Shown here one piece after another: positions 2,130-28,160 of a stretch of 32,000 nt of DNA; the stretch's first letter is position 1, and each line of letters begins with the position of its first letter. Origin of the DNA: Candidatus Methylomirabilis limnetica (lineage in GTDB: Bacteria > Methylomirabilota > Methylomirabilia > Methylomirabilales > Methylomirabilaceae); NCBI RefSeq assembly GCF_003044035.1, contig NZ_NVQC01000015.1, positions 30,001 through 62,000 of the forward strand, given 5' to 3'. Position numbers and translations under genes: made by a program. The notes beneath the pieces were generated by a model. It did not search any database. It was given only the letters and a program-made list of their open reading frames with translations, and had not been told where the DNA came from.

Positions 2130-2139
2130 GGAGTCAGAT

Positions 2140-3158: not shown

Positions 3159-4057
3159 AGGTCCATTCGTTTAGAGGTCCCGCTGTGGCCTCCGGCCTGA
3201 TCCACCTCTCATTGCTGGCCCTTACCTCGCTCGTGCCGGGTCTGGGCCTCTCCGCCCCCTTAGAGATGCGGCTCCCCATTGAGATCATCACAGTCGGAGA
3301 GGCTGACGCGCCGGCGCCTCAGCGATCTACGCTGCACACTGGGCGGATATTGAAGGACCGGCTCCGAACTCCTGGCGTCCCCTCGTCGCCTGCAAATCCC
3401 ACTGCTCTTCCATCTAATCCCAACATCGAGACGCCGCAGGTGGTACAGACGCCGTCACACGAGTCGTCAGTGCCACGCGAACAGCCACCAATGCCGCTAC
3501 TGCCGCCTGAGGCTGTTGTAGAACTGAAGGCCGCCGCCGCATCGACGCGAGCATTTCCGGCAAGTGTAGCAGAAGACAACTCCGGGCAGATCGTCACTGT
3601 GAGGCAGGATACACAGGCGTTGATCGGTCACCAAGCTGCCGGCGGGACGGTGCAGATCAATCGCAATACTGTTGCAGCGGGGGTTGGCGTCGTGGCGTCT
3701 GCTCGGACGGATGGCTATTCTCCTGCCTACAAGGCGGCTGGTGGGGGGAGGGCAGGTATCGACGATGGCGGCCTGATCGACGGCAGGAAGCTCAAGGGCG
3801 GCTACCAGGTCACCCCCCGCTATCCGGAGTCGGCCCGGCGGACCGGCATCGAGGGGACGGCTCTCCTCAAATTCCTGGTTCAGGCCGATGGCGGTGTGGC
3901 CAGCGTCACGATTGAGCGATCGTCCGGTCACGTGGATCTCGACCACGCGGCCGTCCAGGCGGTCAGGCGATGGCGCTTCGAACCGGCAAGAAAAGGCCAC
4001 CGGGTCGTCGCCGTCTGGGTCGTCCTCCCTGTGGAGTTCAGGTTGAAAAAATGGTGA
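3155..4057 (+). CDS. tonB: TonB-family energy transducer
   Basis: N-terminal anchor helix and a long Pro-rich linker (PGVPSSPANPTALPSNPNIETPQVVQTP...PPMPLLPPE). C-terminal TonB_C pattern: YPESARRTGIEGTALLKFLVQADGGVASVTIERSSGHVDLDHAAVQAVRRWRFEPA. Confidence 0.9.
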   Translation: MKVHSFRGPAVASGLIHLSLLALTSLVPGLGLSAPLEMRLPIEIITVGEADAPAPQRSTLHTGRILKDRLRTPGVPSSPANPTALPSNPNIETPQVVQTPSHESSVPREQPPMPLLPPEAVVELKAAAASTRAFPASVAEDNSGQIVTVRQDTQALIGHQAAGGTVQINRNTVAAGVGVVASARTDGYSPAYKAAGGGRAGIDDGGLIDGRKLKGGYQVTPRYPESARRTGIEGTALLKFLVQADGGVASVTIERSSGHVDLDHAAVQAVRRWRFEPARKGHRVVAVWVVLPVEFRLKKW

Positions 4058-4114
4058 GGGTCGGGCTGATTCTCACAGGTAGCCCCATGGACGTTCATAC
4101 AGGAGGAGACAACG

Positions 4115-6490
4115 ATGGAACGAGGCGACGATAGACACACGTGCAGGCGTACAGCAGCCCTTGTGGGGCTGACAACATTCATGGCATGGAGCGCCTTCGC
4201 GGGTGAACGAGTCGTCTGGGCCCAGCTCCAGGCCACCCCGGATCCCCAGCAGGTAGCTCAGAAGGCACAGCGACGTCAGGAGCTTCTGGGCCAGTTGGAG
4301 CAGATCGAGAAGGAGCTTCAGGCGCTTGATCCGGAGGAGAAGGTTAGAGCCGCCCCACCTGCCCCTGCAGCCACTGTGAGTCAGCCAGTGGCCCCTCCGA
4401 CTCCAGGCGAACCGTTGGTCCTGGAGCCTGTCAAGGTGCTCGCCACCCGGATGGAGGAGAAGCCGGTTGGCCGGACCGTCAGCACGGTTGAGCAGGAGGA
4501 CATAGAGGACGCGCGGGCCTTCAGCGTCAGGGAGCTACTCGAGGCCACCCCAGGAGTCACCCTCTCGCAGGGGAACGGACCCCGTGATGTGGGCATCTCC
4601 ATTCGAGGGTCCGGCGCCAAGACCACCTTCGGCATCCGGAACATCAAGGTCTTCGATGACTGGTTTCCAGCCACCCAACCGGACGGCCTCTCGCGGACGG
4701 ACCTGAACGATCCCCATGCCTATGAGGGGGTCGATGTCCTGCGAGGGCCCTCATCGTCACTCTATGACAACTACGCCCTCGGAGGCGTGGTCAATTTCCG
4801 CACCCGCAAAGGGCGCGACATTCGAGGCGTTGAGGTAGGGAATGAGGGCGGGAGCTACGGCTATTCGAACCACTACGTCCAGATCGGGGATCAGCTCGAC
4901 AAGCTCGAGTACTCCCTCTTTGGAAGCCACGTCCGGGGTGACGGCTTCCTGGGCAACAGCAAATTCCACACCACCACTGAAAACCTGGTGGCCACCTTCA
5001 CCCCGGATGAGAAGCGATCGATCACGCTGAAGTTCATCAATAATGACATTGACACCAGGACTCCAAGCCGCCTGACGCTGGCGGAATTTCGAGCCAATCC
5101 ACTGAGCGCAGGGCGAACCTTTGTGACCGGCAAGGGCTTCGTCACCGCCGAGCAGGCGCGCCAGGGGAGAAACGATAATCGCACGATTGTCGGCGCCCGA
5201 TACGAACATCAACTGGACGCGCAGACCGGGTTCCGCCTCCTGGGGAGCTATGATTACAAGGACATTAACCAGACCTTCGGAACGATAGGTGATAACGAGA
5301 ATCCGAGCTTTAACGCCTATGGCGACATCACCCGGGAAGGAACCCTGTGGGGCCTTGCGGCGAAACACTATGCAGGCTTCTTCTTCAATTACATGGAGCA
5401 GGAATCGAGCAACTTCTTCAACCTGGCCGACTACCATGGCAGCCGCGGCGACTTGCAGGCCAATTCCCGAGGCCACATCCGCAATATCGGGGGTCGAGTG
5501 CGGGAGGAGGTCCAGTTCTCGCCGCGATGGATCGGGTACCTTGGGGTGGGTGTGGAGGGCTCGGAGATCCGGACCACAGTCCGATCCCGCAACAGCACGA
5601 CCGCCCCGCTCAGCAGGGTCGATGTGAGTCGCGACTTCATAAATGTGGCGCCGGAGGCAGGGGTGATCTATCGCGTAAACCCGGACCTCCAGATCCGTGG
5701 GCGGGTAGCGACCGCCTACGGCATCCCGGGGATCGGCGATCTGACTACGGCTACGACAGGGCTCGCGGGGAACAATACCGGCTTGAAGACGCAGCGCAAT
5801 GTCGGGGTGGAGCTGGGGATCGATGTCCGACCCCTGCCGACTGTCACGGCAAGCCTGACGGGCTACTACGAGTTCTACTTCAACGAATTCGTCCGACAGT
5901 CGCCCGGCGCGGGCATGTCGTCCTTTACCAGTAACGCCCCCAACGCCGAGCATCGCGGGATCGAGGCGGAGCTGGCCTGGCGGCCATTCGCGGGGGCGAA
6001 GGTATCAACCGCATACACCTTCAACGACCACATCTACACAGAGTTTACGGAAAGTATCTGCTCCAGTGCAGCGTACAAGAGTTTCGATAGGAGCGGCAAT
6101 AAGATCCCGGGCGTTGAACGGCATTTCCTGAACGCGAGGATCGCGTACGACACAAGCCATCGCAGCGAGTGGTGGCGCGGGGCGGGCGGATGGCTGGAGG
6201 TCAACTGGTTGAACGATTACTTCGTGAACAACAGCAACACGCTGAAGACTGAGCCCTACCAACTGGTGAACCTGAACCTCCATTACGACCGCGAGGTCAC
6301 GATCCCCTTTGTCCGATCGATGTCGGCCTTCTTTGAGATTCAGAATCTGTTCGACGCAACCTACATGGCAAGCGCCAACGTCGTGGCCGATGCGCTCAGC
6401 GATACGCCGGCCAATCTGGCGACGTCAAAGCAGGCCTTTTTCGCCGGCCAGCCGCGATCCTATTTTGCCGGCCTCAAGCTCAGATTTTAG
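4115..6490 (+). CDS. TonB-dependent outer-membrane receptor (substrate unknown) with an N-terminal coiled-coil/Pro-rich extension
   Basis: AGGAGG lies 8 nt before the ATG. Plug motifs are present (VDVLRGPSSSLYDNYALGGVVNF). There is a long beta-barrel region and a C-terminal YFAGLKLRF with terminal Phe. The gene follows exbBD-tonB. Confidence 0.9.
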   Translation: MERGDDRHTCRRTAALVGLTTFMAWSAFAGERVVWAQLQATPDPQQVAQKAQRRQELLGQLEQIEKELQALDPEEKVRAAPPAPAATVSQPVAPPTPGEPLVLEPVKVLATRMEEKPVGRTVSTVEQEDIEDARAFSVRELLEATPGVTLSQGNGPRDVGISIRGSGAKTTFGIRNIKVFDDWFPATQPDGLSRTDLNDPHAYEGVDVLRGPSSSLYDNYALGGVVNFRTRKGRDIRGVEVGNEGGSYGYSNHYVQIGDQLDKLEYSLFGSHVRGDGFLGNSKFHTTTENLVATFTPDEKRSITLKFINNDIDTRTPSRLTLAEFRANPLSAGRTFVTGKGFVTAEQARQGRNDNRTIVGARYEHQLDAQTGFRLLGSYDYKDINQTFGTIGDNENPSFNAYGDITREGTLWGLAAKHYAGFFFNYMEQESSNFFNLADYHGSRGDLQANSRGHIRNIGGRVREEVQFSPRWIGYLGVGVEGSEIRTTVRSRNSTTAPLSRVDVSRDFINVAPEAGVIYRVNPDLQIRGRVATAYGIPGIGDLTTATTGLAGNNTGLKTQRNVGVELGIDVRPLPTVTASLTGYYEFYFNEFVRQSPGAGMSSFTSNAPNAEHRGIEAELAWRPFAGAKVSTAYTFNDHIYTEFTESICSSAAYKSFDRSGNKIPGVERHFLNARIAYDTSHRSEWWRGAGGWLEVNWLNDYFVNNSNTLKTEPYQLVNLNLHYDREVTIPFVRSMSAFFEIQNLFDATYMASANVVADALSDTPANLATSKQAFFAGQPRSYFAGLKLRF

Positions 6491-6495
6491 GAAGG

Positions 6496-8046
6496 ATGGA
6501 GATGGAGAGGAAGCCGGTCCGAAAACGGACACGCTGGTACCGGAGGATGACCATCCTCAAGCTTCACAAATGGGCGGGCCTGATCTCGGCTGTCTGGCTG
6601 TGCGTGCTCGGGGCGACCGGCTTCCTTCTCGATCACAAGGAGTGGCGGTGGATGTGGTTTTCGACCGTTTCAGAACGCGTGTTGCCTGAATCGGTGACGA
6701 GTCTCAGTCGGACCGTGATTCAGATCCTACAGGTCAATCCGGATCGGCCGATGCATCAGGTAGCTGCGGGATCGCGTGGGTTGTGGGTCACGGAGGACGG
6801 GGCCAAGAGCTGGCAGCGGACACGGGTGATCGGGGACGAGGGTGGGCAGGTCCAGGTCTTTGCGGTTGAACCGGACCCGGAGCACGGCTGGAATCGGCTC
6901 TGGATCGGAACGGATGATGGGTTATGGACGTCGGAGGATGGCGGCAAGACGCTTGTGAAAGCCGGGATGGAGAGACAGAGGATTACGGCGCTAACGGCAG
7001 GGGCGAGCCATGCGGAACTGTACGGAGCGGCGGATCGAAGCCGGATATTCCAACTGCGCACCGACGAACCGGACCGTCCGGACTGGCTCCGCTTCGAGGC
7101 ACCGGCGGCCGATGCGCTACCGCGCCAGATTTCCTTGCGACGGCTCGTCATCGACCTGCACGTCGGCAATGGACTCTTCGCCAGAAACACCTCCCTCCTG
7201 CTCAACGATATTGCAAGCCTTGGTCTGTGCGCCCTGGCGCTGAGCGGGGTGTTCTATTGGGGTTTCCCCAAGTACTGGCGGCACCGCCGGCGAAACTGCG
7301 GTCAGATTCGCGTCGAAACCAAACGCAAGATTCTCATCTGGCTGTTTCGCCTCCATGGCCCATTGATCGGGCTGTGCGCCGCTGTGCCGCTCCTCTATCT
7401 CGCCATTACTGGCATCCTCTTTGGGCATCGAGAGCTAGGTGATTGGCTCGGAAGGGTACGAATCCCCGCGATGTTCCATCCCCCTGTGTACCACTTGAAT
7501 GCCTGGGACGGGTGGATTGAGGCGGTTATCGGGTATCCGGGTCAACCGGAGAAGCTGTCCATCGGGACTCGGATCGGGCTCTTCACGTCCAAGGACGAAG
7601 GCCGCACCTGGTTGGCAGAGCAGGCTGGTACCGAGCGAATACCAGCAGCCCGAAGGCTTCGCCGCTTTGGGGAGCGGGTCTACATAGGCGGCTGGATGGG
7701 CGGCGGCAGTTATCTCAGGCAGCAAGACGGGGCCGAGTGGCTCAAGCTCTCGGACCGCCATGCCAACATGGCCCGCGACATCACACGGCTGGAGGACGGC
7801 CAGATCGGATGGCTCCATCAGGGGAAGACGGTGGTGATGACGGATCGATCGGGTCAGGTCAGTGGCCAGATCGAGCTGACCCAGCCCATGGAGGATGGCG
7901 TGCCGTGGTACTACGTCCTTAATAGGCTTCACGATGGGATGATCTTCTGGGAACACTGGAAGTGGCTGAACGATCTCTTTGCGGTCCTGGCCACGACGCT
8001 GCTCGTGACCGGACTCATCCGCTGGTGGCGGGTCAAGTGGCGTTAA
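6496..8046 (+). CDS. PepSY-associated-TM-type membrane protein whose periplasmic loops carry Asp-box (BNR-like) repeats
   Basis: Four PepSY_TM-like helices: LHKWAGLISAVWLCVLGATGFLL; LHVGNGLF...LGLCALALSGVFYW; LHGPLIGLCAAVPLLYLAITGILF; LHDGMIFW...LFAVLATTLLVTGLIRWW. Loops contain TEDGAKSW, SEDGGKTL and SKDEGRTW. ATG 6502 is an alternative start. Confidence 0.75.
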   Translation: MEMERKPVRKRTRWYRRMTILKLHKWAGLISAVWLCVLGATGFLLDHKEWRWMWFSTVSERVLPESVTSLSRTVIQILQVNPDRPMHQVAAGSRGLWVTEDGAKSWQRTRVIGDEGGQVQVFAVEPDPEHGWNRLWIGTDDGLWTSEDGGKTLVKAGMERQRITALTAGASHAELYGAADRSRIFQLRTDEPDRPDWLRFEAPAADALPRQISLRRLVIDLHVGNGLFARNTSLLLNDIASLGLCALALSGVFYWGFPKYWRHRRRNCGQIRVETKRKILIWLFRLHGPLIGLCAAVPLLYLAITGILFGHRELGDWLGRVRIPAMFHPPVYHLNAWDGWIEAVIGYPGQPEKLSIGTRIGLFTSKDEGRTWLAEQAGTERIPAARRLRRFGERVYIGGWMGGGSYLRQQDGAEWLKLSDRHANMARDITRLEDGQIGWLHQGKTVVMTDRSGQVSGQIELTQPMEDGVPWYYVLNRLHDGMIFWEHWKWLNDLFAVLATTLLVTGLIRWWRVKWR

Positions 8047-11800: not shown

Positions 11801-12560
11801 CCCCAAGCGCGCAGTTGATGCCTACCGAGAGCAGCGGCATGTGGGCAATGGAGTTCCAAAAAGCTTCTACCGTTTGCCCGGCGAGCGTGCGACCGCTACG
11901 ATCCGTAATGGTCACCGAGACCATGACCGGTACGCGTCGGCCAAGTTCCTCGAGGTACTGATCGATGGCAAACAGCGCGGCCTTACCGTTCAGCGTGTCA
12001 AAGATCGTCTCTACCAACAGGATATCCACTCCGCCGTCCAGGAGCCCACGGACCTGCTCGGTATAGGCTGCGACCAACTGATCGAAGGTAACGGCACGGA
12101 AGGCAGCGTTATGGAGATCGGGCGACATCGATGCCGTGCGATTCGTCGGACCGATCGCGCCGGCCACGAAGCGCGGGCGGCTCGGGTCTGTCGCCATCAC
12201 TGCCAGGGCGGCTTTGCGCGCTGCTCTCGCGCCGGCGACATTCAGGTCATAGGCCAGCGATTCCAACCGATAATCCGCCATCGAGATCGACGTGGAATTG
12301 AACGTGTTGGTTTCGATGATATCGGCGCCAGCTTCCAGATACTGGCGATGAATCGCCTCAATGATGGCCGGCTGCGTGATGGACAGCAGGTCGTTGCACC
12401 CCTTGAGATCGCAGGGGTGGTTGGCAAATGGTTGCCCCCGAAAGTCGGCTTCCTCCAGCTTATGCGCTTGAATCATCGTACCCATCGCGCCGTCAAGAAT
12501 GACGATGCGACGCCGCAACATCTGCTCAAACGCTATCAACCGATCTGACGCTTCAGTCAT
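8868..12560 (-). CDS. metH: Cobalamin-dependent methionine synthase
   Basis: About 1230 aa with all modules present: a homocysteine-binding N-terminus, a pterin-binding region, the cobalamin motif [15 protein letters not shown] (DxHxxG), and a C-terminal AdoMet-activation domain. ATG 12560 (MTEASDR...) is preferred; GTG 12578 is possible. Confidence 0.95.
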
Positions 12561-12648
12561 TTGAATGCCATACCTCACATCTGCTCAGCTCTCCGCTGCC
12601 CATTTCGCCCACAACCGTCACCAGCGCCCCCGCAAGTCAAGCGTGCTC

Positions 12649-12677
12649 ACTATACTGGATTCTCCCAGTCCTCGCAA
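12649..12677 (-). promoter_or_regulatory. Candidate sigma70 promoter for metH
   Basis: Read on the minus strand: TTGCGA (12677-12672), a 17-nt spacer, then TATAGT (12654-12649). This would give a leader of about 80 nt. Confidence 0.45.
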
Positions 12678-12726
12678 GGCGAGCCCTTTGGGCATCCATG
12701 GTCAGTTGCGTGATCGGATCGGAAGC

Positions 12727-12764
12727 GTGCAAGCCTTGCACTTTCTCCTGCAGCAAGCTAGAAT
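12727..12764 (+). promoter_or_regulatory. Candidate sigma70 promoter with overlapping perfect palindrome (possible operator)
   Basis: TTGCAC (12736-12741), a 17-nt spacer, then TAGAAT (12759-12764). The palindrome GTGCAAG-c-CTTGCAC (12727-12741) covers the -35 element. It sits 11 nt upstream of the relic ATG at 12775. Confidence 0.45.
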
Positions 12765-12774
12765 ACGTCACCTC

Positions 12775-12872
12775 ATGATCTATCTCGACCATAATGTAAC
12801 GTCTCCGGTACTACCGGAGGTGCTGGAACGGTGACGCCGTTATTCACTTTAGAACAACACGGACAGAGGAGA
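12775..12872 (+). pseudogene. 5' stub of a NifS/IscS-type cysteine desulfurase gene (about 32 codons, frameshifted, remainder missing)
   Basis: MIYLDHNVTSPVLPEVLER* matches the canonical N-terminus (xIYLDxNATTPvxPeVleAM). After a 1-nt frame change the next frame reads VTPLFTLEQHGQ, compare MLPFFTEQFGN in NifS. Similarity then stops at the porin SD/ATG. Confidence 0.55.
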
Positions 12873-12875
12873 ATC

Positions 12876-14360
12876 ATGGTTCATAGAAGTTGGTGGGTTC
12901 GCGGTGTCGTCTTGGGCAGCGCCTTGCTGCTCGCCCCTGCTCCCGCGTGGGCCGATAAGCTCACAGAGCTCGAGCAGGTATTTGAGACGCAGCAGAAGTC
13001 GCTGCAGCAGTTGCAGCAGGAGATGCACCGCCTGCGGCAAGACCGGACCGCGCAACAAGCAGAGATCGACAGGCGCGTGATGGAGGTGGAGAAGAAGGCC
13101 GCAGATGCCGCAGCCTCGTCACTGCTCACCGGGTATGAGCCCGGAAAAGGGTTCTTCCTGAAGTCAGCCGATGGCCAGTTCCGACTGAACCTGAGCGGGT
13201 ACGTCCAGACTTGGATGCAAGTGGAAGGGGCGCGAAATGAAGAAGAGTTCCCCGCTGGATTGACGGCAGCAGGGCTGGCACGGCACGACCCGAGCACATT
13301 TCGGCTGCGCCGCACTCGACTCGTCGTGAGCGGCCAGATCTTCAATGACTTTGGCTTCTACATCGAGTCAGAGACCGCAAGCGGTTCCATCGGCACGCGG
13401 CTCCAACAGGGCTGGGGCAGCTACACATATGCGCCGTGGGCAAAGGTGACCGTAGGGCAGTACAAGCCCCGATTCGGTCTCGAGATGCTCACCTCCTCTC
13501 GGGGCCTGGACTTCGCCGAGCGGGCGGTCATCTCCAGGGCGCTGTCCCCGGACCAGCAGCTTGGGGCCACCGTCGAGGGCAATCTGAAACTCGCCAACAT
13601 GCCTGTCTACTACGGGGTGGGGATCTATAACGGCTGCGGCCGGGTCGATCAGTGCCCCATAGACAACGACGGTGATAAAGAGTTCACCGGTCGAGTGGCC
13701 TTTTCACCCCCTATGCCCTTCGGAACTCTCACCATCGGTCTGAATGTCGATCAGCGAGAATTTCGGCTTGTGAGGGGTAATGGCGCTACCGATGCGAACG
13801 GCGTGACGAGGGTCGTCGGCGGCTTTGAGAACTTCAACCCGGTTGGTCCGACCGGCGTCAGGCTGGCTGGCAACGGCGTCGGCGGGACCCAGAACGGCTT
13901 TCGGATCAACGGAGATCGAATTACTGGCGGCGGCGACATCGTGTTCGACTTCTACCCGTTTGTGATCAAGGGTGAGTACGCCTACGCCTCACAGGATCGT
14001 GACGGATTGGATGTTGGCGGTGGCAATCTCGAGAACCTTATCGTGCAGGGTGGGTATGGGTCGATCGGGTACTGGATCTTCGGCAATAAGCGCAATGGTT
14101 TACTGACCAACCTCCGCTACGAGCACGTGCGCGTCGATGATAACAGCGGGGGATTTAATAAGGCTTTGGGCACCGTAGAGCAGCCGATGGAGTTGCGTTC
14201 TGGGACCGTAGGTCTGGCATGGTACATCAACCCCAGCGTCCGGCTGCGAGGGAACTACATTATCACCGACCTCGCCCAAAAGCAGAATATCGTCGGGATG
14301 AGCAATAGTTCCGGCGGTAACGCTCATCAAGGGATCGCCGAGCTGATGGTCCAGTTCTAA
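12876..14360 (+). CDS. Outer-membrane porin, OprO/OprP (Porin_O_P)-like, with N-terminal coiled coil
   Basis: AGAGGAG lies 5 nt before ATG 12876. Signal peptide ends ...APAPAWA. A coiled coil follows (DKLTELEQVFETQQKSLQQLQQEMHRLRQ...), then alternating beta-strand patterns. The C-terminus is GIAELMVQF with terminal Phe. Confidence 0.8.
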   Translation: MVHRSWWVRGVVLGSALLLAPAPAWADKLTELEQVFETQQKSLQQLQQEMHRLRQDRTAQQAEIDRRVMEVEKKAADAAASSLLTGYEPGKGFFLKSADGQFRLNLSGYVQTWMQVEGARNEEEFPAGLTAAGLARHDPSTFRLRRTRLVVSGQIFNDFGFYIESETASGSIGTRLQQGWGSYTYAPWAKVTVGQYKPRFGLEMLTSSRGLDFAERAVISRALSPDQQLGATVEGNLKLANMPVYYGVGIYNGCGRVDQCPIDNDGDKEFTGRVAFSPPMPFGTLTIGLNVDQREFRLVRGNGATDANGVTRVVGGFENFNPVGPTGVRLAGNGVGGTQNGFRINGDRITGGGDIVFDFYPFVIKGEYAYASQDRDGLDVGGGNLENLIVQGGYGSIGYWIFGNKRNGLLTNLRYEHVRVDDNSGGFNKALGTVEQPMELRSGTVGLAWYINPSVRLRGNYIITDLAQKQNIVGMSNSSGGNAHQGIAELMVQF

Positions 14361-14524
14361 GCCGCACCTGTGTGTGGCAGGTTTCAGCCGGAGTTCGGCG
14401 TGGTGAAACCTAGGGTGACGCTGAGGTATTCGCCGAATAGGTGGCAGAATTGATCCTGGTACGGCCGCACGGAGAGAAGATATCAAGGCGGCAGTGTCAG
14501 CGATCAAATGTGCAACCGCAACAC

Positions 14525-14665
14525 CCCAGAACAGCGATAGAAAGTTGTCATTGCGAACGCAGTGAAGCAATCTCGCATTGTTGTACTGAGATTGCCGCGC
14601 ACCCTGCGGGTGCTCGCAATGACGGTAAGAATCGGGTAGTTGCGAAGTCTATCGCTGTTCTTGGG
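14525..14665. repeat. MITE-like nested palindromic element (about 141 bp)
   Basis: Terminal inverted repeats are AGAACAGCGATAGA (14528-14541) and TCTATCGCTGTTCT (14648-14661). Inner pairs are GTCATTGCGA/TCGCAATGAC, GCAATCTC/GAGATTGC and GCACCC-tgc-GGGTGC. It contains the common 'cattgcgaacgcagtgaagcaatc'-type motif. Confidence 0.6.
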
Positions 14666-15322
14666 TACGTGGTTGTGGGCGCGTTTAGGCTGTGGTGGAG
14701 TGACTGTGTAGTATTGGAGGTGCGGATTTGCCAGCTCCACAACCTGCAAATCTCCAAAGAGAGGCGGGTGCGGTGCCAGTCGGGATTGGCAGCAAGCAGC
14801 TATCGGATTTGCTGAACATTTACGGTTATGGATTGCTCCATGCCGTGGCAGATCACATTAAAAAACGCGTGAGTCCAGCAAAAATGAAGAGGTTAATGAA
14901 ACTTTTTTAAGGAGTATTCCGTCAGGAAGAAATCTCACCTGTTTTCTTGCTCCATGCTCAGCAACGGCAAATTATGTGCCGGACAGTATTGGGTCTGGCC
15001 CTATTTTCCTATTTTCGCCCATCCCTCGCCTCGTTTCCCGCTTGCCTGCCAGTCCGTTTCCCGCTATTATTGGGATAAGCCATCTGGGTTACCACCTTTC
15101 GGATCGACCGATTTCGCTTTCAGCCAATCCTACCAAGGCTCCCAGATGATTTTTCACTCACATTTCATCGCCATCGCGCAAAATTCAGGTAAGATGTATG
15201 TGGGTGGCCCCAGTGGCCATGACAATTCCTTGGTTGTTTTCGCCACCGGTAAGCTACACGCAGGCACAGTAAGGTCTAATGCATCAGCATTCGTTCCTTG
15301 CGCGTAGCTTGAGGTGGTGGCT

Positions 15323-16021
15323 ATGAGAGCGAAAACTGGAAGTGCCAGGAAATGGCAAAATCGCGCCTATTTGACCGGCTTCTGTTTTGGACTTGCGATC
15401 CTGGCATTTACTGTAGTCCCCGTCGGGGAATGGTTTCATGCTAAAGGAACCATGAATACAGGCCACGGCAAACTTGCCTGCGGGGCTTGCCACAAAAACG
15501 CACCTGGCAGCTTCCGTCAGCAGATTCAGGCCAACCTGCGCCACGCCTTTGGCCGGCGCGAAGGGCCCGGCCCCTTCTTTGGACGACTTCCCGTGAGTAA
15601 TGAGAACTGCCTCTCCTGTCACGAGCGGCCCAATGACCGCCACCCGGTCTATCGCTTCCTCGAGCCCCGTTTCAGCCAGGCCCGGGAAAAGCTGCGCCCC
15701 CATCAGTGCGTCTCCTGCCACGCCGAGCACCAGGGCCGGCGTGTCACTTTGGCGGAGACCAACTATTGCGTTAACTGCCACAAGGATACCCGGTTAAAGA
15801 AAGATCCGATCGACGTGCCCCATGCGGACCTGATCGCCGCCAAGCAATGGGACTCCTGCCTGGGCTGCCACGACTTCCACGGCAACCACATCATGCAGGT
15901 CGAGAAATCGGTCGACAAGCGAACGCCGACAGAGAAAATCCGCGCCTATTTTGACGGCGGGCCCTCCCCTTACGGCACAACCCTCCACTACAAAGCAAAA
16001 CAGGATGGTCAAGATGGCTAA
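15323..16021 (+). CDS. Membrane-anchored pentaheme c-type cytochrome
   Basis: GAGGTGG precedes ATG 15323. N-terminal helix is AYLTGFCFGLAILAFTVVPV. There are five CXXCH motifs: CGACH, CLSCH, CVSCH, CVNCH and CLGCH, with extra distal His residues. Confidence 0.85.
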   Translation: MRAKTGSARKWQNRAYLTGFCFGLAILAFTVVPVGEWFHAKGTMNTGHGKLACGACHKNAPGSFRQQIQANLRHAFGRREGPGPFFGRLPVSNENCLSCHERPNDRHPVYRFLEPRFSQAREKLRPHQCVSCHAEHQGRRVTLAETNYCVNCHKDTRLKKDPIDVPHADLIAAKQWDSCLGCHDFHGNHIMQVEKSVDKRTPTEKIRAYFDGGPSPYGTTLHYKAKQDGQDG

Positions 16022-16853
16022 GCAACACTTCTGGATCGCCTGCCTGGCGCTGGGCGCCTTAAGCGTATACCTATTTGTCAGCGCCCCGCCGCCATTAGAA
16101 GAGAAGGCCACCGACGCGCCCATCCCGGTAGAACGGATGTTTGAAATTCTCAAGGTGGAAAACGACGTGGTGAGGGCGATGTGGACCAAGGAAGTTGTCG
16201 GCGCGGGTAAACAGAATGGCTTGAAGTTCGACGAGCGTTGGCGCGATGCGGACGTGGAGGCCGGCCCTTTGCCTGCGTTGTTTCTGCGCGAGACGGCGAG
16301 AAGTCTGGAAAAGAATCCGACGCCGCTCAGTCTGTTCCTAGGTTCTGACTATCCCATCAACTCGGCTAACCGCTTCGAGGGGCTGCAATTGGAAAAATTC
16401 CAGGTGGTCAAGCAAACCCTCAAGCCGCAATTCTTCTTCCTGCCAGACATTCAAATGAGGGTAGCCATGTTCAGCGATTTGGCGGTCGTCGAGGGCTGCA
16501 TCCAATGCCATAACAAGCACGAACAATCACCGAAGCACGATTGGAAGCTCAATGATGTGATGGGCGCGACCACTTGGATGTACCCAAGCGGCAGCGTGTC
16601 CATGGATGAGTTGCTCCGCACACTCGTAGCCTTACGCCAAGGCTTCAAGGAGGCCTACGAGTCTTACCTGGAAAAGGCGCAAAAATTCGCCAATCCCCCT
16701 GCCATTGGCGAACACTGGCCGGTCGAGGGTTATTTCCTGCCGAGCTCCGAGGTGTTCATGGGGGAAATTGCCAGGCGCACAGCCCCACAAACCTTGGCGG
16801 CGCTCAGTTCGCTGGCAAGCAAGCCCCAATCGGGGTCCGCAACGAACAAATAA
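16014..16853 (+). CDS. Membrane-anchored monoheme c protein, DUF3365/PAS-like heme-sensor type with a helical C-terminal extension
   Basis: ATG 16014 overlaps the stop of the upstream gene. Anchor helix is HFWIACLALGALSVYLFV. The single CIQCH sits in the context AMFSDLAVVEGCIQCHNKHEQSPKHDWKLNDVMGATTWMYP, which resembles the DUF3365 pattern as I recall it. Confidence 0.7.
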   Translation: MAKQHFWIACLALGALSVYLFVSAPPPLEEKATDAPIPVERMFEILKVENDVVRAMWTKEVVGAGKQNGLKFDERWRDADVEAGPLPALFLRETARSLEKNPTPLSLFLGSDYPINSANRFEGLQLEKFQVVKQTLKPQFFFLPDIQMRVAMFSDLAVVEGCIQCHNKHEQSPKHDWKLNDVMGATTWMYPSGSVSMDELLRTLVALRQGFKEAYESYLEKAQKFANPPAIGEHWPVEGYFLPSSEVFMGEIARRTAPQTLAALSSLASKPQSGSATNK

Positions 16854-16863
16854 GGGGGCTCCC

Positions 16864-17421
16864 ATGTCATCACCCCTTAAAGGCTTAGTCTCCATGCAAG
16901 ACTTCATCCGTCTTAAATCGTCGCTGCCAGTCGCCTTCAAGCCAGGCGCGTCCGTCAGGGGGTATTTTGGGGTAGGTCTGTTTCTATTGACGGCCTTGAT
17001 TGTCCAGCAATCAACCGGGTGGCGGTGGACCTTGTTGACCGAACTGCAAGGCACCAAGACGTATAAGCTCGCTACAGGCCTCGGATTGCTTGCGTGTGTC
17101 CTTTATCAATGGCGCTTTTCTGTGACGCGTGCCCAGGGGGGGCAGCACAATTTCGAGACTATGATGGGTCGCCATAAACTGTTCGGCACCCTGCTCCCTT
17201 TGGTTTTCTTCTTCCATTCCCAAACCTTAGGCTACGGCTATCAGCAGATCTTCAGCCTGACGTTGTTACTTATCTTCCTCACCGGCCTGTTCAATCTCCA
17301 AATCGTCACAATCTACAAGCCTTGGTACAGGCCGGTGTGGATAAGTGCCCATGTCGGATTGTCTATGGCGTTGTTGCTGCTCATGACGTACCACGTCTAC
17401 ATAAACTACGCCTTTAAGTAG
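16864..17421 (+). CDS. Five-helix membrane protein with two 13-residue-spaced His pairs (ferric-reductase-domain-like di-heme b candidate)
   Basis: ATG lies 10 nt after the previous stop. HKLFGTLLPLVFFFH and HVGLSMALLLLMTYH each place two His residues 14 positions apart within predicted helices. Confidence 0.65.
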   Translation: MSSPLKGLVSMQDFIRLKSSLPVAFKPGASVRGYFGVGLFLLTALIVQQSTGWRWTLLTELQGTKTYKLATGLGLLACVLYQWRFSVTRAQGGQHNFETMMGRHKLFGTLLPLVFFFHSQTLGYGYQQIFSLTLLLIFLTGLFNLQIVTIYKPWYRPVWISAHVGLSMALLLLMTYHVYINYAFK

Positions 17422-17768
17422 GGACAGGGTTTGCTGCCTGGCGACCGCCTCGGTGGGTCCTGCGCTTTTCCTTCATTGGCTTTGGGTAGGAGAAAAGGGC
17501 GCTCTTCATGAGGAATTTCGCGTTCGCCTCACACCGAAGCGCGGACGCGTCCCGTCGCAGGGCTTAGCCTGAATCGAATAAAACAATGTCCAGAAAAGCC
17601 TCCCTGGAGATCATTGGCCTACCCTCCTTTCTCTTAAAAGAAGGGATACCACTTTACCTTCAGGGTGGTACACTTTTCGTTACCGCTTTCGGTACATTAT
17701 CGCATTACCGGTGGCAACTATGCGAGGTCAATTGGAACTCTTGCATTTATCAGCACTTACGGAATAGG

Positions 17769-17844
<76 letters not shown>

Positions 17845-17852
17845 CACAAAAA

Positions 17853-17923
17853 CAGCGATTAGCGATTAGCCATCAGCAAGTTACGGTAAACACCCCCGGA
17901 TTCTTCCTGATGGCTGATAGCTC
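17853..17923. repeat. Inter-tRNA spacer hairpin built from heptamer repeats
   Basis: cagcgat tagcgat tagccat cagcaag opposes ttcctga tggctga tagctc. AGCCATCAGCAAG (17868-17880) pairs with CTTCCTGATGGCT (17903-17915), 12 of 13 positions. Confidence 0.7.
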
Positions 17924-17932
17924 TCATACTAG

Positions 17933-18006
17933 TGCGCCCAGGGAGACTCGAACTCCCGACCTACTGCTTAGAAGGCAGCCGCTCTATCCGGCTGAGCTAT
18001 GGGCGC
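17933..18006 (-). tRNA. tRNA-Arg (anticodon TCT), CCA not encoded
   Basis: Reverse complement is GCGCCCATAGCTCAGCCGGATAGAGCGGCTGCCTTCTAAGCAGTAGGTCGGGAGTTCGAGTCTCCCTGGGCGCA, followed by CTA rather than CCA. Confidence 0.9.
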
Positions 18007-18015
18007 CTCCTCAAG

Positions 18016-18095
18016 TAGTCATCAGCAATCAGCTTTCAGCGAGGCGCGCAAAGCATCTCCTAATCTTTCCTGAACGCTGATGGCTGATGGCTGTT
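18016..18095. repeat. Inter-tRNA spacer hairpin built from heptamer repeats
   Basis: CATCAGCAATCAGCTTTCAG (18020-18039) pairs with CTGAACGCTGATGGCTGATG (18070-18089), 18 of 20 complementary. Units are AGCNNTC / GCTGATG. Confidence 0.7.
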
Positions 18096-18099
18096 ATCG

Positions 18100-18176
<77 letters not shown>

Positions 18177-18184
18177 AAGAGAAC

Positions 18185-18226
18185 AGGGTATAGGGGTTAG
18201 ACCCTCTACTCTTGACCCTAAACCCT
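18185..18226. repeat. Inter-tRNA spacer hairpin, GGGTATA/CCCTAAA heptamer type
   Basis: AGGGTATAGGGG (18185-18196) pairs with ACCCTAAACCCT (18215-18226), 10 of 12 complementary. Confidence 0.6.
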
Positions 18227-18232
18227 TTTTTA

Positions 18233-18308
18233 TGGGGTGAACGAAGGGACTCGAACCCTCAACCCCTGGAGCCACAGTCCAGTGCTCTGCCATTGAGCTA
18301 CGCTCACC
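18233..18308 (-). tRNA. tRNA-His (anticodon GTG) with encoded G-1 and CCA
   Basis: Reverse complement is GGTGAGCGTAGCTCAATGGCAGAGCACTGGACTGTGGCTCCAGGGGTTGAGGGTTCGAGTCCCTTCGTTCACCCCA. The extra 5' G is typical of tRNA-His. Confidence 0.9.
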
Positions 18309-18321
18309 ATACGAACCGCAC

Positions 18322-18404
18322 AGGGTATAGGGTATAGAAAACGGAACCCATTCTAACCCACCGCCTCAATCCCTACACCCTAGACCCTCTACCCTAAACC
18401 CTAT
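18322..18404. repeat. Inter-tRNA spacer: AGGGTAT x2 arm opposing a CCCTNNA x5 arm
   Basis: agggtat agggtat aga (18322-18338) opposes ccctaca ccctaga ccctcta ccctaaa ccctat (18371-18404). Confidence 0.75.
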
Positions 18405-18408
18405 TTCG

Positions 18409-18486
18409 TGGTGCGCCTGGCCCGATTTGAACGGGCGGCCCACGGCTTCGGAGGCCGTTGCTCTATCCGGGCTGAGCTACAGGCGC
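18409..18486 (-). tRNA. tRNA-Arg (anticodon CCG), CCA encoded
   Basis: Reverse complement is GCGCCTGTAGCTCAGCCCGGATAGAGCAACGGCCTCCGAAGCCGTGGGCCGCCCGTTCAAATCGGGCCAGGCGCACCA. Confidence 0.9.
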
Positions 18487-18494
18487 GCAAGACC

Positions 18495-18583
18495 AGGGTA
18501 TAGCGTTTAGGGTATAGGATGTAAAGGTACTCCGCAGCAATCCCGTCTCGTCCCTACACCCTAGACCTTCTACCCTAAACCCC
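18495..18583. repeat. Inter-tRNA spacer: AGGGTAT-type arm opposing a CCCTNNA arm; the right arm is near-identical to that of the previous spacer
   Basis: agggtat agcgttt agggtat aggatgt aaagg (18495-18527) opposes ccctaca ccctaga ccttcta ccctaaa cccc (18552-18583). About 45 nt next to the tRNA 3' end are shared with 18370-18408, with 3 differences. Confidence 0.75.
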
Positions 18584-18589
18584 ATTTCG

Positions 18590-18666
<77 letters not shown>

Positions 18667-18714
18667 TCATCCATCTTTCCCAACTCCAGCCGCCGACATC
18701 AACCTTCGATCGGC

Positions 18715-19317
18715 TTAAGCCGCAGTAAGCGAGAGGCGCCGTAACAACGGTTTTGTTTTCTCGATGGCACGCGCACGATGGCTGATTCCATTCTTGACGT
18801 CCGGTGGAAGCGCGGCCATCGTTACGCCAAAGTCAGGGACGATAAAAATAGGATCGTAGCCAAACCCACTATTGCCGTAGGGAGCCTCAGCGATGCTCCC
18901 GTAACAACTCCCATGAAAGATAGACAACTCTCCTCCTGGTCCGGCCACGGCCACCCCACACTGAAAATGCGCCCCCCGCCGCTGGAGAGGCATCCCATCC
19001 AGTAACTCAAGGATGCGCTGATTACGCTCTTGATCAGTGGCTGTCACACAGAGATAGCGGCCAGAGTGAACCCCGGGCTGCCCTCCGAGAGCGTCTACCT
19101 CGATACCGGAATCATCCGCGAGAGCCCAGTAACCGCTGAACTCTGCGGCTGCCTTTGCCTTGGCAGCGGCGTTCTCCGCGTACGTAACGCCGGACTCGAC
19201 CGACGGAATATACCCGTGAAGCGAGGCGAGCGACAAAAAAGAAATCCTCAGATCGCTGAGGATGGCTATGATTTCCTGAAGCTTTCCTACGTTTGCCGTA
19301 GCCAACACCACCTGCAT
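18715..19317 (-). CDS. rdgB: RdgB/HAM1 non-canonical purine NTP pyrophosphatase
   Basis: [16 protein letters not shown]..., [27 protein letters not shown] and ISHRARA motifs are present. GAGG precedes ATG 19317. Confidence 0.9.
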
Positions 19318-19353
19318 TCTAGAAACCTCGCCCCCCGATGTCAAGCTACATCT

Positions 19354-20094
19354 TTAGGCCGTCTTCAGGCTGTTGAGATCAGATCCCAAAAGTTGGCGTT
19401 GAAGATCAACGAGCCTGTCGATGCCTTGCGTCGCCAGGTGGAGCATCTGGTCTAACTGGGCCTTGTCGAAGGGAACCTCCTCGGCGGTCCCTTGGATCTC
19501 GACGAACTTTCCGGAGCCTGTCATCACCACATTCATATCAACCTCTGCCATGGAGTCTTCGGCATAGTTGAGGTCCAGCAAGAGCTCTCCATCCACATAC
19601 CCGACGCTCACACCAGCCACGAAATCTTTCAGGAGTGGCCTCTTGATCTGGCCGTTCTCTTTAAGCCGAGAGAGCGCATCTACCATTGCCACAAAGGCCC
19701 CTGTGATAGCGGTGGTTCGAGTCCCTCCGTCAGCCTGAATCACGTCACAATCGACCAGCACTGTCCGCTCCCCCAATCGCGTCAAATCGATCACCGCCCG
19801 TAGCGACCGACCGATGAGGCGCTGGATCTCGAATGTTCGGCCGCTAGCCCTCCCGGTTGCCGATTCCCGAGGTATCCTCGTCTTGGTAGAGCGGGGGAGC
19901 ATCCCATATTCCGCAGTAACCCACCCCTGCCCGGTTCCACGCAGGAACAGCGGAACCTTTTCCTCTACCGTGGCCGTGCAGAGAACTTTGGTCTCACCAA
20001 CCTCAATGAGCAGTGACCCTTCAGCATACTTGAGGAAGCCGCGGTCCACCTTTACCGGCCTATTCTCGTCCATCTTCCGACCATCAATCCTCAC
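19354..20094 (-). CDS. rph: Ribonuclease PH
   Basis: [16 protein letters not shown]...[38 protein letters not shown]...[18 protein letters not shown] is colinear with E. coli Rph as I recall it. GTG 20094 has AGGAG 5 nt upstream. The ORF-track start at 20133 is probably an over-extension. Confidence 0.9.
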
Positions 20095-20129
20095 AGTCTC
20101 TCCTTTCGCCTGATCTCCCACCAGCAATC

Positions 20130-20699
20130 TCAAAAGACGTACTGTGGAGATAAAGCCATTCGTGTATTAACATGTCCTGCCAATGTTGAAATCTCCGCCC
20201 CCTCCACAAGGATCTGCACACGCGTGATCTGGACGAAGTTCGAGGCGAGGGTATTCACAATAGAGAAGACGGTGTAGAGTTCCCCTTGAGCGCCTCCAGG
20301 CAGACGATCCCGTAACCTCCTATTGAAATCGACGTACGCAGTCCCGGATGAATCAATAAACAGATTGAGAAGCTGGGCATCCCGAGGGACCGTCGGTGCC
20401 AGATCACCACCCTTCGGCCCATTTACGAGCTCAGCCAAGGTTCGCTTGGCCTCTTCTGTCGTCGTCGTTCCACCTCCAATCTCTCTGGTCTCCTCGTGGA
20501 ACGAGTTGCCGTCACTGGTTAAAAAGAAGAGCGCTACGTTTTTTCTCCCATTTTCAAACGTCGGCTTCATCGGCTCTGAGGCGGTACGTTGGACAGCGGG
20601 TCTGTTCACCGTGACCGATTCGTTGTTCCAAAGAGCGATCGCACCGACGATCACCACCAGCAAAGCGATGGATACGGTCGCAGTCTTGAGGTTGCGCAT
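20130..20699 (-). CDS. GerMN-domain lipoprotein/secreted protein
   Basis: N-terminal anchor [18 protein letters not shown]. The pattern continues [10 protein letters not shown]...[16 protein letters not shown]...[17 protein letters not shown]...[16 protein letters not shown]...[17 protein letters not shown], typical of GerM-like domains that often follow amidase genes. Confidence 0.6.
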
Positions 20700-22502: not shown

Positions 22503-22620
22503 TCCTGGCGGCGACCTACTCTCCCACGCAGTTGCCCACGTAGTACCATCGGCGCTGGAGGACTTCACTTCCGTGTTCGGGATGGGAACGGGTGTTTCCC
22601 CTCCGCTATAGCCACCAGGA
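22503..22620 (-). rRNA. rrf: 5S ribosomal RNA
   Basis: Reverse complement is TCCTGGTGGCTATAGCGGAGGGGAAACACCCGTTCCCATCCCGAACACGGAAGTGAAGTCCTCCAGCGCCGATGGTACTACGTGGGCAACTGCGTGGGAGAGTAGGTCGCCGCCAGGA. Helix I pairs end to end. Confidence 0.95.
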
Positions 22621-22689
22621 ACCTTGCAAGAAGTTTTCCGAGTTCTTATAACTTATCGTCGAGTCAACACATTGCTTCTCAATACTGAT

Positions 22690-23010
22690 CTATGGGACTG
22701 AACTAACCCAAATTCTATCCTTAATTCTAGCGAATTGTTTGCGTCCCAGCACCTTCTTACCAATCACTTGGTCAAGCTTACGATATGGTCGGTGTCGAAC
22801 GATTCGCTCGGCTGCTTCTTTCCCAATACCAGGAAGCTTCGAAAGCTCTCGAACTGTCGCTGCATTCAGATCAGTCTTACGCAGTGTTGACTTGCTAGTG
22901 GCAGTGATCTCTTTGGGCGTTGTATGCCTAGTGGGTTCAGACCCTACGCCAAAAGCCGCGAGGCCTATCGCCACGATAATGCATATGACCACACAAGCGA
23001 TCCGTTTCAT
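22690..23010 (-). CDS. ComEA-like helix-hairpin-helix DNA-binding protein with N-terminal anchor/signal, located in the 23S-5S spacer
   Basis: MKRIACVVICIIVAIGLAAF is followed by LNAATVRELSKLPGIGKEAAERIVRHRPYRKLDQVIG (HhH motif). A GTG at 23013 is an alternative start. There is no strong SD. Same strand as the rRNAs. Confidence 0.7.
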   Translation of the reverse strand: MKRIACVVICIIVAIGLAAFGVGSEPTRHTTPKEITATSKSTLRKTDLNAATVRELSKLPGIGKEAAERIVRHRPYRKLDQVIGKKVLGRKQFARIKDRIWVSSVP

Positions 23011-23043
23011 CACCAGGAATCCAGAATAGAGTTAAGAAATAAT

Positions 23044-26070
<3,027 letters not shown>

Positions 26071-26127
26071 CCAATTATTACCTAACTCGAGGTCTGTATT
26101 CATTGGAGACACGGATCGTTTATTCAA

Positions 26128-26140
26128 TTGTCAAAGAGCA
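26128..26140 (-). promoter_or_regulatory. boxA-like antitermination element in the 16S-23S spacer
   Basis: The minus strand reads TGCTCTTTGACAA, compare E. coli rrn boxA TGCTCTTTAACAA. The same 13-mer occurs in the 16S leader. Confidence 0.65.
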
Positions 26141-26213
26141 CCGCGAGCTATGCTCGCGTTAACTAATTCAAACTAGCTTTTGCTATGTGCAATAAGTTCC
26201 CGAAGTTCCCACT

Positions 26214-26289
26214 TGGTGGAGATGAGCGGAATCGAACCGCTGACCCCCTGCTTGCAAAGCAGGTGCTCTCCCGACTGAGCTACATCCCC
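26214..26289 (-). tRNA. tRNA-Ala (anticodon TGC) in the ITS
   Basis: Reverse complement is GGGGATGTAGCTCAGTCGGGAGAGCACCTGCTTTGCAAGCAGGGGGTCAGCGGTTCGATTCCGCTCATCTCCACCA. The G3:U70 identity pair is present. Confidence 0.95.
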
Positions 26290-26363
26290 CACACGCACTG
26301 CGGATATCGGATAAACGATACCGAACGTTGCTCAAAATAATAATTCCGCTATCCGAAATGGAA

Positions 26364-26440
26364 TGGTGGGCCTTCCTGGGATCGAACCAGAGACCTCACG
26401 CTTATCAAGCGTGCGCTCTAACCAGCTGAGCTAAAGGCCC
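26364..26440 (-). tRNA. tRNA-Ile (anticodon GAT) in the ITS
   Basis: Reverse complement is GGGCCTTTAGCTCAGCTGGTTAGAGCGCACGCTTGATAAGCGTGAGGTCTCTGGTTCGATCCCAGGAAGGCCCACCA. Confidence 0.95.
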
Positions 26441-26598
26441 CTTCGACAAAACACAAAGTAAACACTATACAAGACCCCAAGACGCCACCGATATCACCAA
26501 CTTATCGATCGCACCTCGGACTCTCCTATAGAAAAAGAAAAAATATTGTTGCTACCGACCTGGGGTAAATTGACCTAGGAGATTAATGGTACTCCTTA

Positions 26599-28160
<1,562 letters not shown>

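Follow-up and report, generated by a model that had tools for sequence, protein, structure and literature searches.

A conserved three-gene haem cassette of nitrite-dependent and aerobic methanotrophs, a candidate electron conduit across the inner membrane

Membrane cytochromes b that carry pairs of His residues and small c-type haem proteins of the Tll0287 type are both known from described systems. DUF4405 has been purified and binds haem b, and its four central His residues are arranged as in MsrQ and PepSY-type proteins (PMC11334425). The DUF3365/Tll0287 family has been reclassified as "sCache_haem"; about half of its members are stand-alone proteins with "redox-related" roles, and a Cys-less member showed tight binding of nitric oxide (NO), fast autoxidation and superoxide production, while operons, multihaem partners and NAD(P)H are not mentioned for the family in that report (bioRxiv 10.64898/2026.02.01.703092). 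In marine Alphaproteobacteria, the ptdABCDEFG operon encodes an FAD/NAD(P) oxidoreductase, an iron-sulfur protein with a cyclic-nucleotide-binding (cNMP-binding) domain, a ferric-reductase-like transmembrane (TM) protein and multihaem cytochromes c (bioRxiv 10.1101/2023.11.21.568154). Here we analyzed a stretch of 32,000 nucleotides (nt) from Candidatus Methylomirabilis limnetica (contig NZ_NVQC01000015.1, positions 30,001 to 62,000; hereafter the window), in which three adjacent genes, g1, g2 and g3, encode an anchored pentahaem cytochrome c, an anchored monohaem cytochrome c and a membrane protein with two His pairs. The results make it reasonably probable that the three products assemble in the inner membrane as a single complex, through which electrons pass from the cytoplasmic side to a periplasmic haem site, in the manner of the conduits formed by NADPH oxidases (NOX) and MsrQ.

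Among the known systems, NOX and FRE proteins resemble g3 in their stacked b haems on two His pairs of TM3 and TM5, which are predicted for g3 and have the 13-residue spacing in both of its pairs. Both have the N-terminus on the cytoplasmic side, and both are fed by an FNR-type FAD/NAD(P)H module, which is fused to the membrane domain in relatives of g3. The N-terminal regulatory domain of NOX, EF-hands in NOX5, has a parallel in the cNMP-binding domains of g3 fusions. However, g3 has five TM helices instead of six, the reductase of the fusions is N-terminal instead of C-terminal and includes an extra BFD-type [2Fe-2S] domain, and the acceptor would be a dedicated pentahaem c together with a Cache-haem c, rather than O2 or Fe(III) directly. 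MsrQ (YedZ) is likewise a free-standing membrane haem b protein that serves a periplasmic redox partner encoded next to it, with its cytoplasmic donor (Fre or quinol) encoded elsewhere, as would be required in this window. It differs in that the partner in the trio is not a molybdoenzyme and in that the four invariant His of g3 are consistent with two haems.

DUF4405 and PepSY_TM proteins are small membrane proteins with four central His that provide the transmembrane step for periplasmic redox proteins, but they pair with ApbE-flavinylated proteins and not with c-type cytochromes, and DUF4405 has six TM helices (PMC11334425). The product of g2 shares with Tll0287 and other sCache_haem proteins a CXXCH motif, an extracytoplasmic location and a stand-alone form. 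It lacks the axial Cys found in Tll0287 and the P. putida protein, has a conserved anchor and an extension of about 90 amino acids (aa), and is obligately paired with a pentahaem c and a putative di-haem b protein, a pairing that the sCache_haem report does not mention. The ptd operon, compared with g1 to g3 by description only, distributes an equivalent set of functions over separate genes; it is seven genes long, encodes a porin as well as tetra- and decahaem proteins, and lacks a Cache-haem protein. In the NrfB/NrfH systems a small multihaem c also feeds a periplasmic catalytic haem protein, and g1 has weak NrfB-like matches, but the partner of g1 is not NrfA. A literature search found no published description of the trio operon, the nearest published concept being the ptd operon. 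Each part of the trio is of a known kind, while the combination, the g3 family and the inverted, iron-sulfur-containing NOX-like fusion are undescribed.

The three genes lie on the forward strand at 15323-16021 (g1, 232 aa), 16014-16853 (g2, 279 aa) and 16864-17421 (g3, 185 aa); all were assigned as open reading frames (ORFs), and g1 and g2 also by Pfam. The ATG of g2 overlaps the stop of g1 by 8 nt (16014-16021, ATGGCTAA), 10 nt separate g2 from g3, and a Shine-Dalgarno-like motif precedes each start. An alternative in-frame GTG start for g1 is present at 15314, three codons upstream. The genes are co-directional and translationally coupled. A preliminary description of this locus, made without database searches, had reported the same packed arrangement and junctions; its accounts of g1 as an anchored protein with five CXXCH motifs, of g2 as a DUF3365/Tll0287-type protein and of g3 as a five-helix protein with two His-x13-His pairs were likewise borne out by the homologues, the Pfam match and the structural model presented below.

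Examination of the neighbourhoods of g3 homologues (55-76% identity) revealed the same g1-g2-g3 order in three unrelated contexts, and the same trio was present around g2 homologues on Methylococcales-type contigs. We fetched 80 metagenome loci via g2 and searched their six-frame ORFs with hidden Markov models of the g1, g2 and g3 families. The gene order was g1-g2-g3 in 54 loci and g3-g1-g2 in 14, and the 12 loci without g3 were all on contigs cut on at least one side. Of the 62 loci long enough to show it, 61 had the g1 gene directly 5' of g2; in the remaining one (L081, 4186-5298) the g1 and g2 matches fell in a single stop-to-stop reading frame, which could be a fusion or an assembly artefact. 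Linkage persisted for a g3 relative as distant as a profile E value of 2.8e-18 (L103), and in one locus (L101) an LCM methyltransferase gene and a HamA_HO-like gene were inserted between g2 and g3 (2122-3880). The 97 ORFs flanking the trio in 19 non-redundant loci contained no Pfam family more than four times and revealed no conserved fourth partner. The trio was thus linked in every testable locus with no neighbour family enriched, in agreement with the expectation that it would co-occur elsewhere, and neither profile nor literature searches placed it in a named complex. The g1, g2 and g3 genes are obligately linked and form a self-contained conserved module.

Named sources of the unfused trio were Methylomirabilis, Methylococcaceae/Methylococcales, Methylomicrobium and unclassified Gammaproteobacteria. 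Forms in which g3 is fused to a reductase came from Myxococcales/"Deltaproteobacteria" metagenome-assembled genomes (MAGs), a Gemmatimonadota MAG and Methyloprofundus. The cassette proteins of Methylomirabilota and Methylococcales are 50-60% identical, in unrelated neighbourhoods. A scan of a genome collection with one alignment (A1) yielded three loci. Two loci of this collection, L011 and L012, carry close copies of the trio and are binned as "Patescibacteria group" and "uncultured Methylococcaceae", respectively; the former contig is probably a mis-binned Methylomirabilota. Several neighbours were recorded in single loci. In a Methylomirabilis MAG (L007, 2102-5182; also L008) the trio lies directly 3' of an 808-aa NorB-like gene (qNor/NO-dismutase-type) and a small cytochrome c gene; a COX1 match was present in two flanking ORFs of other loci, and this window has no NorB-like neighbour. 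A HamA_HO-like (haem-oxygenase-like) gene adjoins or interrupts the cassette in two unrelated loci (L101 and L015, 5107-5919), too few to count.

The g1 product carries CXXCH motifs at residues 53, 96, 129, 149 and 179 and matched three Pfam families above their cut-offs: Cytochrom_c3_2 (36.9 bits against 25), Paired_CXXCH_1 (33.8 against 20.6) and Cytochrome_C7 (27.4 against 24.8). All five motifs were kept in 67 of 67 unique homologues (39-94% identity), in which six further His residues (H48, H107, H136, H167, H186 and H189) were also invariant. Five CXXCH motifs and six invariant His suffice for bis-His ligation of five haems, which is the signature of a relay and not of a catalytic cytochrome; the haems are therefore probably bis-His ligated, and we read g1 as a putative electron wire. 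A hydrophobic span at about residues 14-39 was assigned as the TM anchor and the haem domain was assigned to the periplasm. Searches of Pfam and NCBIfam gave no NapC/NirT (Cytochrom_NNT) match, and g1 is therefore not a recognised quinol dehydrogenase. Its scores were also far under the equivalog cut-offs of NrfB (TIGR03146, 22.2 bits against 166.6) and NrfH (9.7 against 134.2).

The g2 product matched PF11845 (Tll0287-like, DUF3365) above the gathering score (33.5 bits against 24.1, E 6.6e-8, residues 109-188). It has a single CIQCH motif, a hydrophobic N-terminal anchor at residues 4-28 and a C-terminal extension of about 90 aa after the Tll0287-like domain. A total of 1390 homologues were found, of which the best 120 were at least 57% identical and nearly all had a precomputed PF11845 match. 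An alignment of 21 sequences (56-92% identity to the window protein) revealed invariant C162, C165, H166, N167, H169, M183, W188 and the stretch AGPLPALFLRE, together with an invariant block in the C-terminal extension and four invariant anchor residues (L16, Y19, L20 and A24). In this alignment no Cys was conserved beyond the CXXCH motif; the only other Cys of the window protein, C10 in the anchor, is not conserved, and the axial Cys ligand of Tll0287-type proteins is accordingly absent from g2. Given the PF11845 match, the redox roles reported for stand-alone sCache_haem proteins and the NO binding of the Cys-less one, we read g2 as the likely terminal redox site of the trio.

The window g3 had no Pfam or NCBIfam match at E <= 1. 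A word-indexed search found 27 close homologues, all at least 55% identical, with the four His invariant in the 20 that were aligned, and the same kind of search with a diverse alignment (A2) gave at least 32 proteins and added little. In a profile search of a library of 1.84 billion representatives (clusters at 50% identity), the family comprised at least 372 representatives at E <= 1e-3 and 260 at E <= 1e-10. The His residues form the pairs H104/H118 and H163/H177, each with 13 residues between (i/i+14). Across 169 extracted g3 domains, H118, H163 and H177 were present in all and H104 in 168, and G72, G108, G123, Q62, Q82, R89 and W159 were nearly invariant. The conservation of the four His of g3 and the five CXXCH of g1 means that these motifs exceed chance. 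One 2305-aa protein (P0105) gave 15 short matches to the g3 profile (positions 78-124) and is apparently composed of repeats of part of the g3 domain.

An AlphaFold2 model of g3 from 93 sequences (pLDDT 89.2, pTM 0.81) contained five long helices, at residues 30-51, 65-90, 97-118, 126-142 and 155-183, with H104/H118 on the third and H163/H177 on the fifth. An earlier model from 20 sequences was discarded (pLDDT 67; its Foldseek matches were generic helical bundles such as talin). Lys and Arg residues make the N-terminus and the segments 84-105 and 148-157 positive, and the other loops are not. This distribution places the N-terminus in the cytoplasm, H104 and H163 near the inner face and H118 and H177 near the outer face, so that the predicted topology is N-terminus in and C-terminus out. 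We infer that g3 is a di-haem b carrier, in which TM3 and TM5 would hold an inner haem between H104 and H163 and an outer haem between H118 and H177.

We further examined the relation of g3 to known membrane cytochromes b by scanning 93 g3 relatives singly against Pfam, with matches listed at E <= 1. DUF4405 (PF14358) was the commonest match, in 36 of the 93 (best E 4.3e-7); Ferric_reduct (PF01794) was matched by 19/93 (best E 1e-5) and Ni_hydr_CYTB (PF01292) by 15/93 (best E 1.9e-6). All three are membrane haem-b families. The DUF4405 match that was inspected scored 14.6 bits against 26.7 and covered the last two helices only; a Ferric_reduct example scored 17.3 against 28, the window g3 itself having no match at E <= 1; and a Ni_hydr_CYTB example scored 22.4 against 30.1 over nearly the full length. 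The best meaningful Foldseek match of the g3 model was the E. coli superoxide oxidase CybB (5oc0; probability 0.90, TM-score 0.47-0.50, E 1.4), in a comparison that discriminates poorly among small helical membrane bundles. Three g3 relatives were labelled MsrQ/YedZ by JGI pipelines. An MlaD match of the g3 family profile against PDB sequences was rejected as spurious. As in ferric-reductase-domain (FRD) proteins, g3 has two His pairs about 13 residues apart on TM3 and TM5, with haem ligation itself predicted, but it does not have six TM helices followed by a C-terminal FNR-type dehydrogenase; it has five, and the FNR-type module is N-terminal in the fusions. Homology to MsrQ was not detectable by hhalign against the single E. 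coli sequence, and no MsrP-type gene was present in the window or in the related loci examined. From these comparisons we conclude that g3 is most probably a remote relative of the di-haem membrane cytochromes b, outside every curated family. The earlier placement of g3 as FRD/NOX/MsrQ-like stands at the superfamily level but not beyond it, since the Pfam matches were sub-threshold, Foldseek and hhalign gave nothing significant and the protein has five TM helices, not six.

Fusions of the g3 domain gave the clearest indication of how the trio may be supplied with electrons. Twenty-one of the best 150 g3-family representatives measured 414-928 aa and had a C-terminal g3 domain, and ten long representatives were scanned against Pfam. 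In four of them (802-928 aa), two cNMP_binding domains were followed by Fer2_BFD ([2Fe-2S]), FAD_binding_6, NAD_binding_1 and then the g3 domain; four others (458-522 aa) had Fer2_BFD, FAD_binding_6 and NAD_binding_1 before the g3 domain; and two shorter ones (304 and 414 aa) had part of the reductase module only. Bfd delivers electrons to the b haem in bacterioferritin. About 25 residues separate the end of NAD_binding_1 from the start of the g3 domain, which leaves no room for a TM helix and therefore puts the N-terminus of the g3 domain in the cytoplasm, the same side as the charge distribution. Both fusion genes whose context was looked up (L017 and L018) were followed directly by g1-like (226-230 aa) and g2-like (275-280 aa) genes. 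Most of the 14 metagenome loci with g3 first also had a g3 N-terminal extension, of 190-780 aa, the domain types being read in the family representatives. The preliminary description had noted that no flavin/NAD partner is adjacent, which holds for this window and fails for the family, and its proposal of a transmembrane electron conduit was strongly reinforced by these fusions. Judged from the fused FNR-type modules, electrons would flow from the cytoplasm to the periplasm, and the occurrence of the same g1 and g2 partners with fused and unfused forms argues for one direction in both, so that the unfused trio would presumably operate in this sense as well.

Taken together, the trio may work as follows. 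The two b haems of g3 would carry electrons across the membrane from the inner to the outer site, and the chain of five c haems of g1, anchored beside g3, would relay them onward. The haem of g2, also anchored and without a Cys as sixth ligand, would receive them, and a small periplasmic oxidant would be reduced there. The sequence conservation of the N-terminal anchors of g1 and g2 suggests that both pack against g3. In the fused relatives the path would run from NAD(P)H through FAD, [2Fe-2S], two b haems and five c haems to the Cache haem. Since g3 is free-standing in the window, its electrons would come either from a reductase encoded elsewhere or from the quinol pool, as they do for MsrQ. 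Our best guess for the substrate of g2 is NO or an O2-derived species, favoured because of the analogy with the Cys-less sCache_haem protein and because of the ecology of the carriers.

Several results weigh against this conduit. The inspected Pfam matches of g3 relatives were all under the gathering score, and g3 itself reached no cytochrome b cut-off. Foldseek of the 93-sequence g3 model against the PDB gave nothing at E <= 0.001, and hhalign of the g3 family against E. coli MsrQ (probability 0.2) and CybB (0.7) gave no signal, a result that is uninformative because both templates were single sequences. The g2 family profile had no match among PDB sequences, and the invariant H169 or M183 could close the g2 haem and make the site purely electron-transferring. 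The window version has no reductase, so that the donor and even the direction are taken from relatives, and the trio neighbourhoods yielded no clue to the substrate.

Two other explanations were considered for the trio. In one, electrons from quinol would be exported to metals or extracellular acceptors, as with FRE, FoxB/PepSY or CymA-type systems; the trio would serve as an assimilatory reductase of ferric iron or another metal, or as an initial stage of extracellular electron transfer, and g2 would be a relay haem without a catalytic role. The layout of g3 is ferric-reductase-like, an iron-uptake cluster with TonB-ExbBD, receptor and PepSY_TM genes lies in the window at 2074-8046, a porin gene lies upstream at 12831-14360, and the conceptually similar ptd operon has been proposed to serve extracellular electron transfer (bioRxiv 10.1101/2023.11.21.568154). 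However, the iron cluster and the porin stand beside the trio in no relative, porin and TonB-system families are not enriched in the flanks, g1 and g2 are anchored in the inner membrane, and the trio is linked to neither a cytochrome nor a conduit of the outer membrane; we consider this export unlikely. In the other, which the preliminary description had offered beside the conduit, the trio would be a periplasmic redox or NO sensor, with g2 as the sensing haem poised or served by g1 and g3 and no net turnover. About half of the sCache_haem domains are sensor modules and the Cys-less ones act as NO sensors, some fused relatives carry signalling-type cNMP-binding domains, and some loci have PAS, GGDEF or response-regulator genes nearby. 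Such a role is disfavoured by the lack of any output domain (kinase, MCP, GGDEF or HAMP) in g1, g2 or g3 and of any signalling family enriched in the flanks (at most four of 97 ORFs). A five-haem wire, a di-haem carrier and an NAD(P)H/FAD/iron-sulfur module amount to an electron supply, to which the cNMP-binding domains would be inputs and not outputs, and a sensor is in our judgement quite unlikely.

The direction of flow can also be questioned. Hydroxylamine, Fe(II), a reduced cytochrome or another donor in the periplasm might be oxidised at g2 or g1 and its electrons passed through g3 to quinone. The window version has no cytoplasmic reductase, and di-haem b proteins such as CybB, the Foldseek match of highest probability, pass electrons from the periplasm to quinone. 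On the other hand, the fused FNR-type modules fit NAD(P)H as the donor, electron transfer from periplasmic c haems to NAD(P)+ would have to run steeply uphill, and fused and unfused forms having the same g1 and g2 partners speaks for a single direction; we regard inward flow as very unlikely. The outward conduit to a periplasmic haem is therefore the reading we retain.

A conserved leader precedes g1 on the forward strand (15241-15322). It consists of a box at 15241-15259, CGCCACCGGTAAGCTACAC, identified in an alignment of nine upstream regions, a hairpin or palindrome at 15276-15293 (CTAATGC-atca-GCATTCG) and the Shine-Dalgarno sequence GAGGTGG. RNAalifold predicted a stem of 7 bp from ten sequences, with compensatory changes in five of the seven pairs, and the element could be a stem-loop of the 5' untranslated region or an operator. 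Scans for promoters and terminators gave counts no higher than in shuffled sequence. The non-coding gap upstream of g1 runs from the porin stop at 14360 to the g1 start (14361-15322, GC 0.518) and measures 962 nt, not the approximately 650 nt given previously. It contains an inverted repeat at 14536-14640, GTCATTGCGAAC ... GCTCGCAATGAC around about 55 nt, which resembles a REP-like or miniature palindromic repeat and is crossed by spurious ORFs on both strands.

An accessory origin had been proposed for the cassette from its low GC content. The GC contents of g1, g2 and g3 are 0.58, 0.56 and 0.52, the low overall value of g3 being due to its hydrophobic amino-acid make-up. GC at third codon positions (GC3) is 0.69-0.71 in the trio, 0.73-0.76 in the four upstream genes and 0.55-0.66 in the downstream genes. 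Because GC3 is close to that of the upstream neighbours, the composition is not foreign, and foreign origin inferred from a GC anomaly was rejected. Nonetheless, the neighbourhood of the cassette differs in every relative. Comparison of positions 12000-20500 with all fetched loci by blastn revealed no neighbour of the trio in common with any relative; DNA similarity in the closest relatives began at 15183-15316 and stopped at 17417-17583, at the cassette borders even where g2 was 91-93% identical. This confinement indicates that the cassette is placed differently in each genome, though its composition looks native.

The remaining features of the window were as follows. The iron-uptake-type cluster at 2074-8046 consists of ExbB-ExbD-TonB, a TonB-dependent receptor and PepSY_TM, the last being a second predicted haem-b membrane reductase in the window and unlinked to the trio in relatives. 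MetH lies on the minus strand between this cluster and the porin gene upstream of the trio (12831-14360), whose product is phosphate-porin-like. Six tRNA genes (Lys, three Arg, His and Pro) occupy 17769-18666 on the minus strand; two of the tRNA-Arg copies, flanks included, share 86% identity over 100 nt, and a 43-nt spacer repeat recurs in the array at 18194, 18370 and 18551. Ham1, RNase PH and amidase genes lie downstream of the tRNA genes, and a complete rRNA operon (16S-tRNAIle-tRNAAla-23S-5S) is on the minus strand at 22503-28160.

For the large stand-alone half of the DUF3365/sCache_haem family, these findings supply a set of partners and a role that can be tested. They also define a four-His membrane family (at least 372 clusters at 50% identity) that is recognised by no curated library, and reveal an inverted, iron-sulfur-containing NOX architecture that is connected to c-type cytochromes. 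Because each fused form is a donor made of a single polypeptide, biochemical reconstitution is straightforward. Very tentatively, and with the balance of our own judgement against it, the trio and its fused relatives may be a bacterial counterpart of the NADPH oxidases, namely an NAD(P)H-driven haem chain, under cyclic-nucleotide control in some lineages, in which a Cache-fold c haem reduces NO or O2 and reactive oxygen species. If this were true, a sensor fold would have been recruited as an enzyme active site, and the cassette could be a specific adaptation of methane oxidisers to NO and low-O2 stress, or to periplasmic electron supply. Besides the nitrite-dependent and the aerobic methanotrophs, MAGs of Myxococcota and Gemmatimonadota type carry the cassette, and in such organisms a periplasmic reductase that draws on NAD(P)H could bear on the handling of NO and oxygen at oxic-anoxic interfaces.

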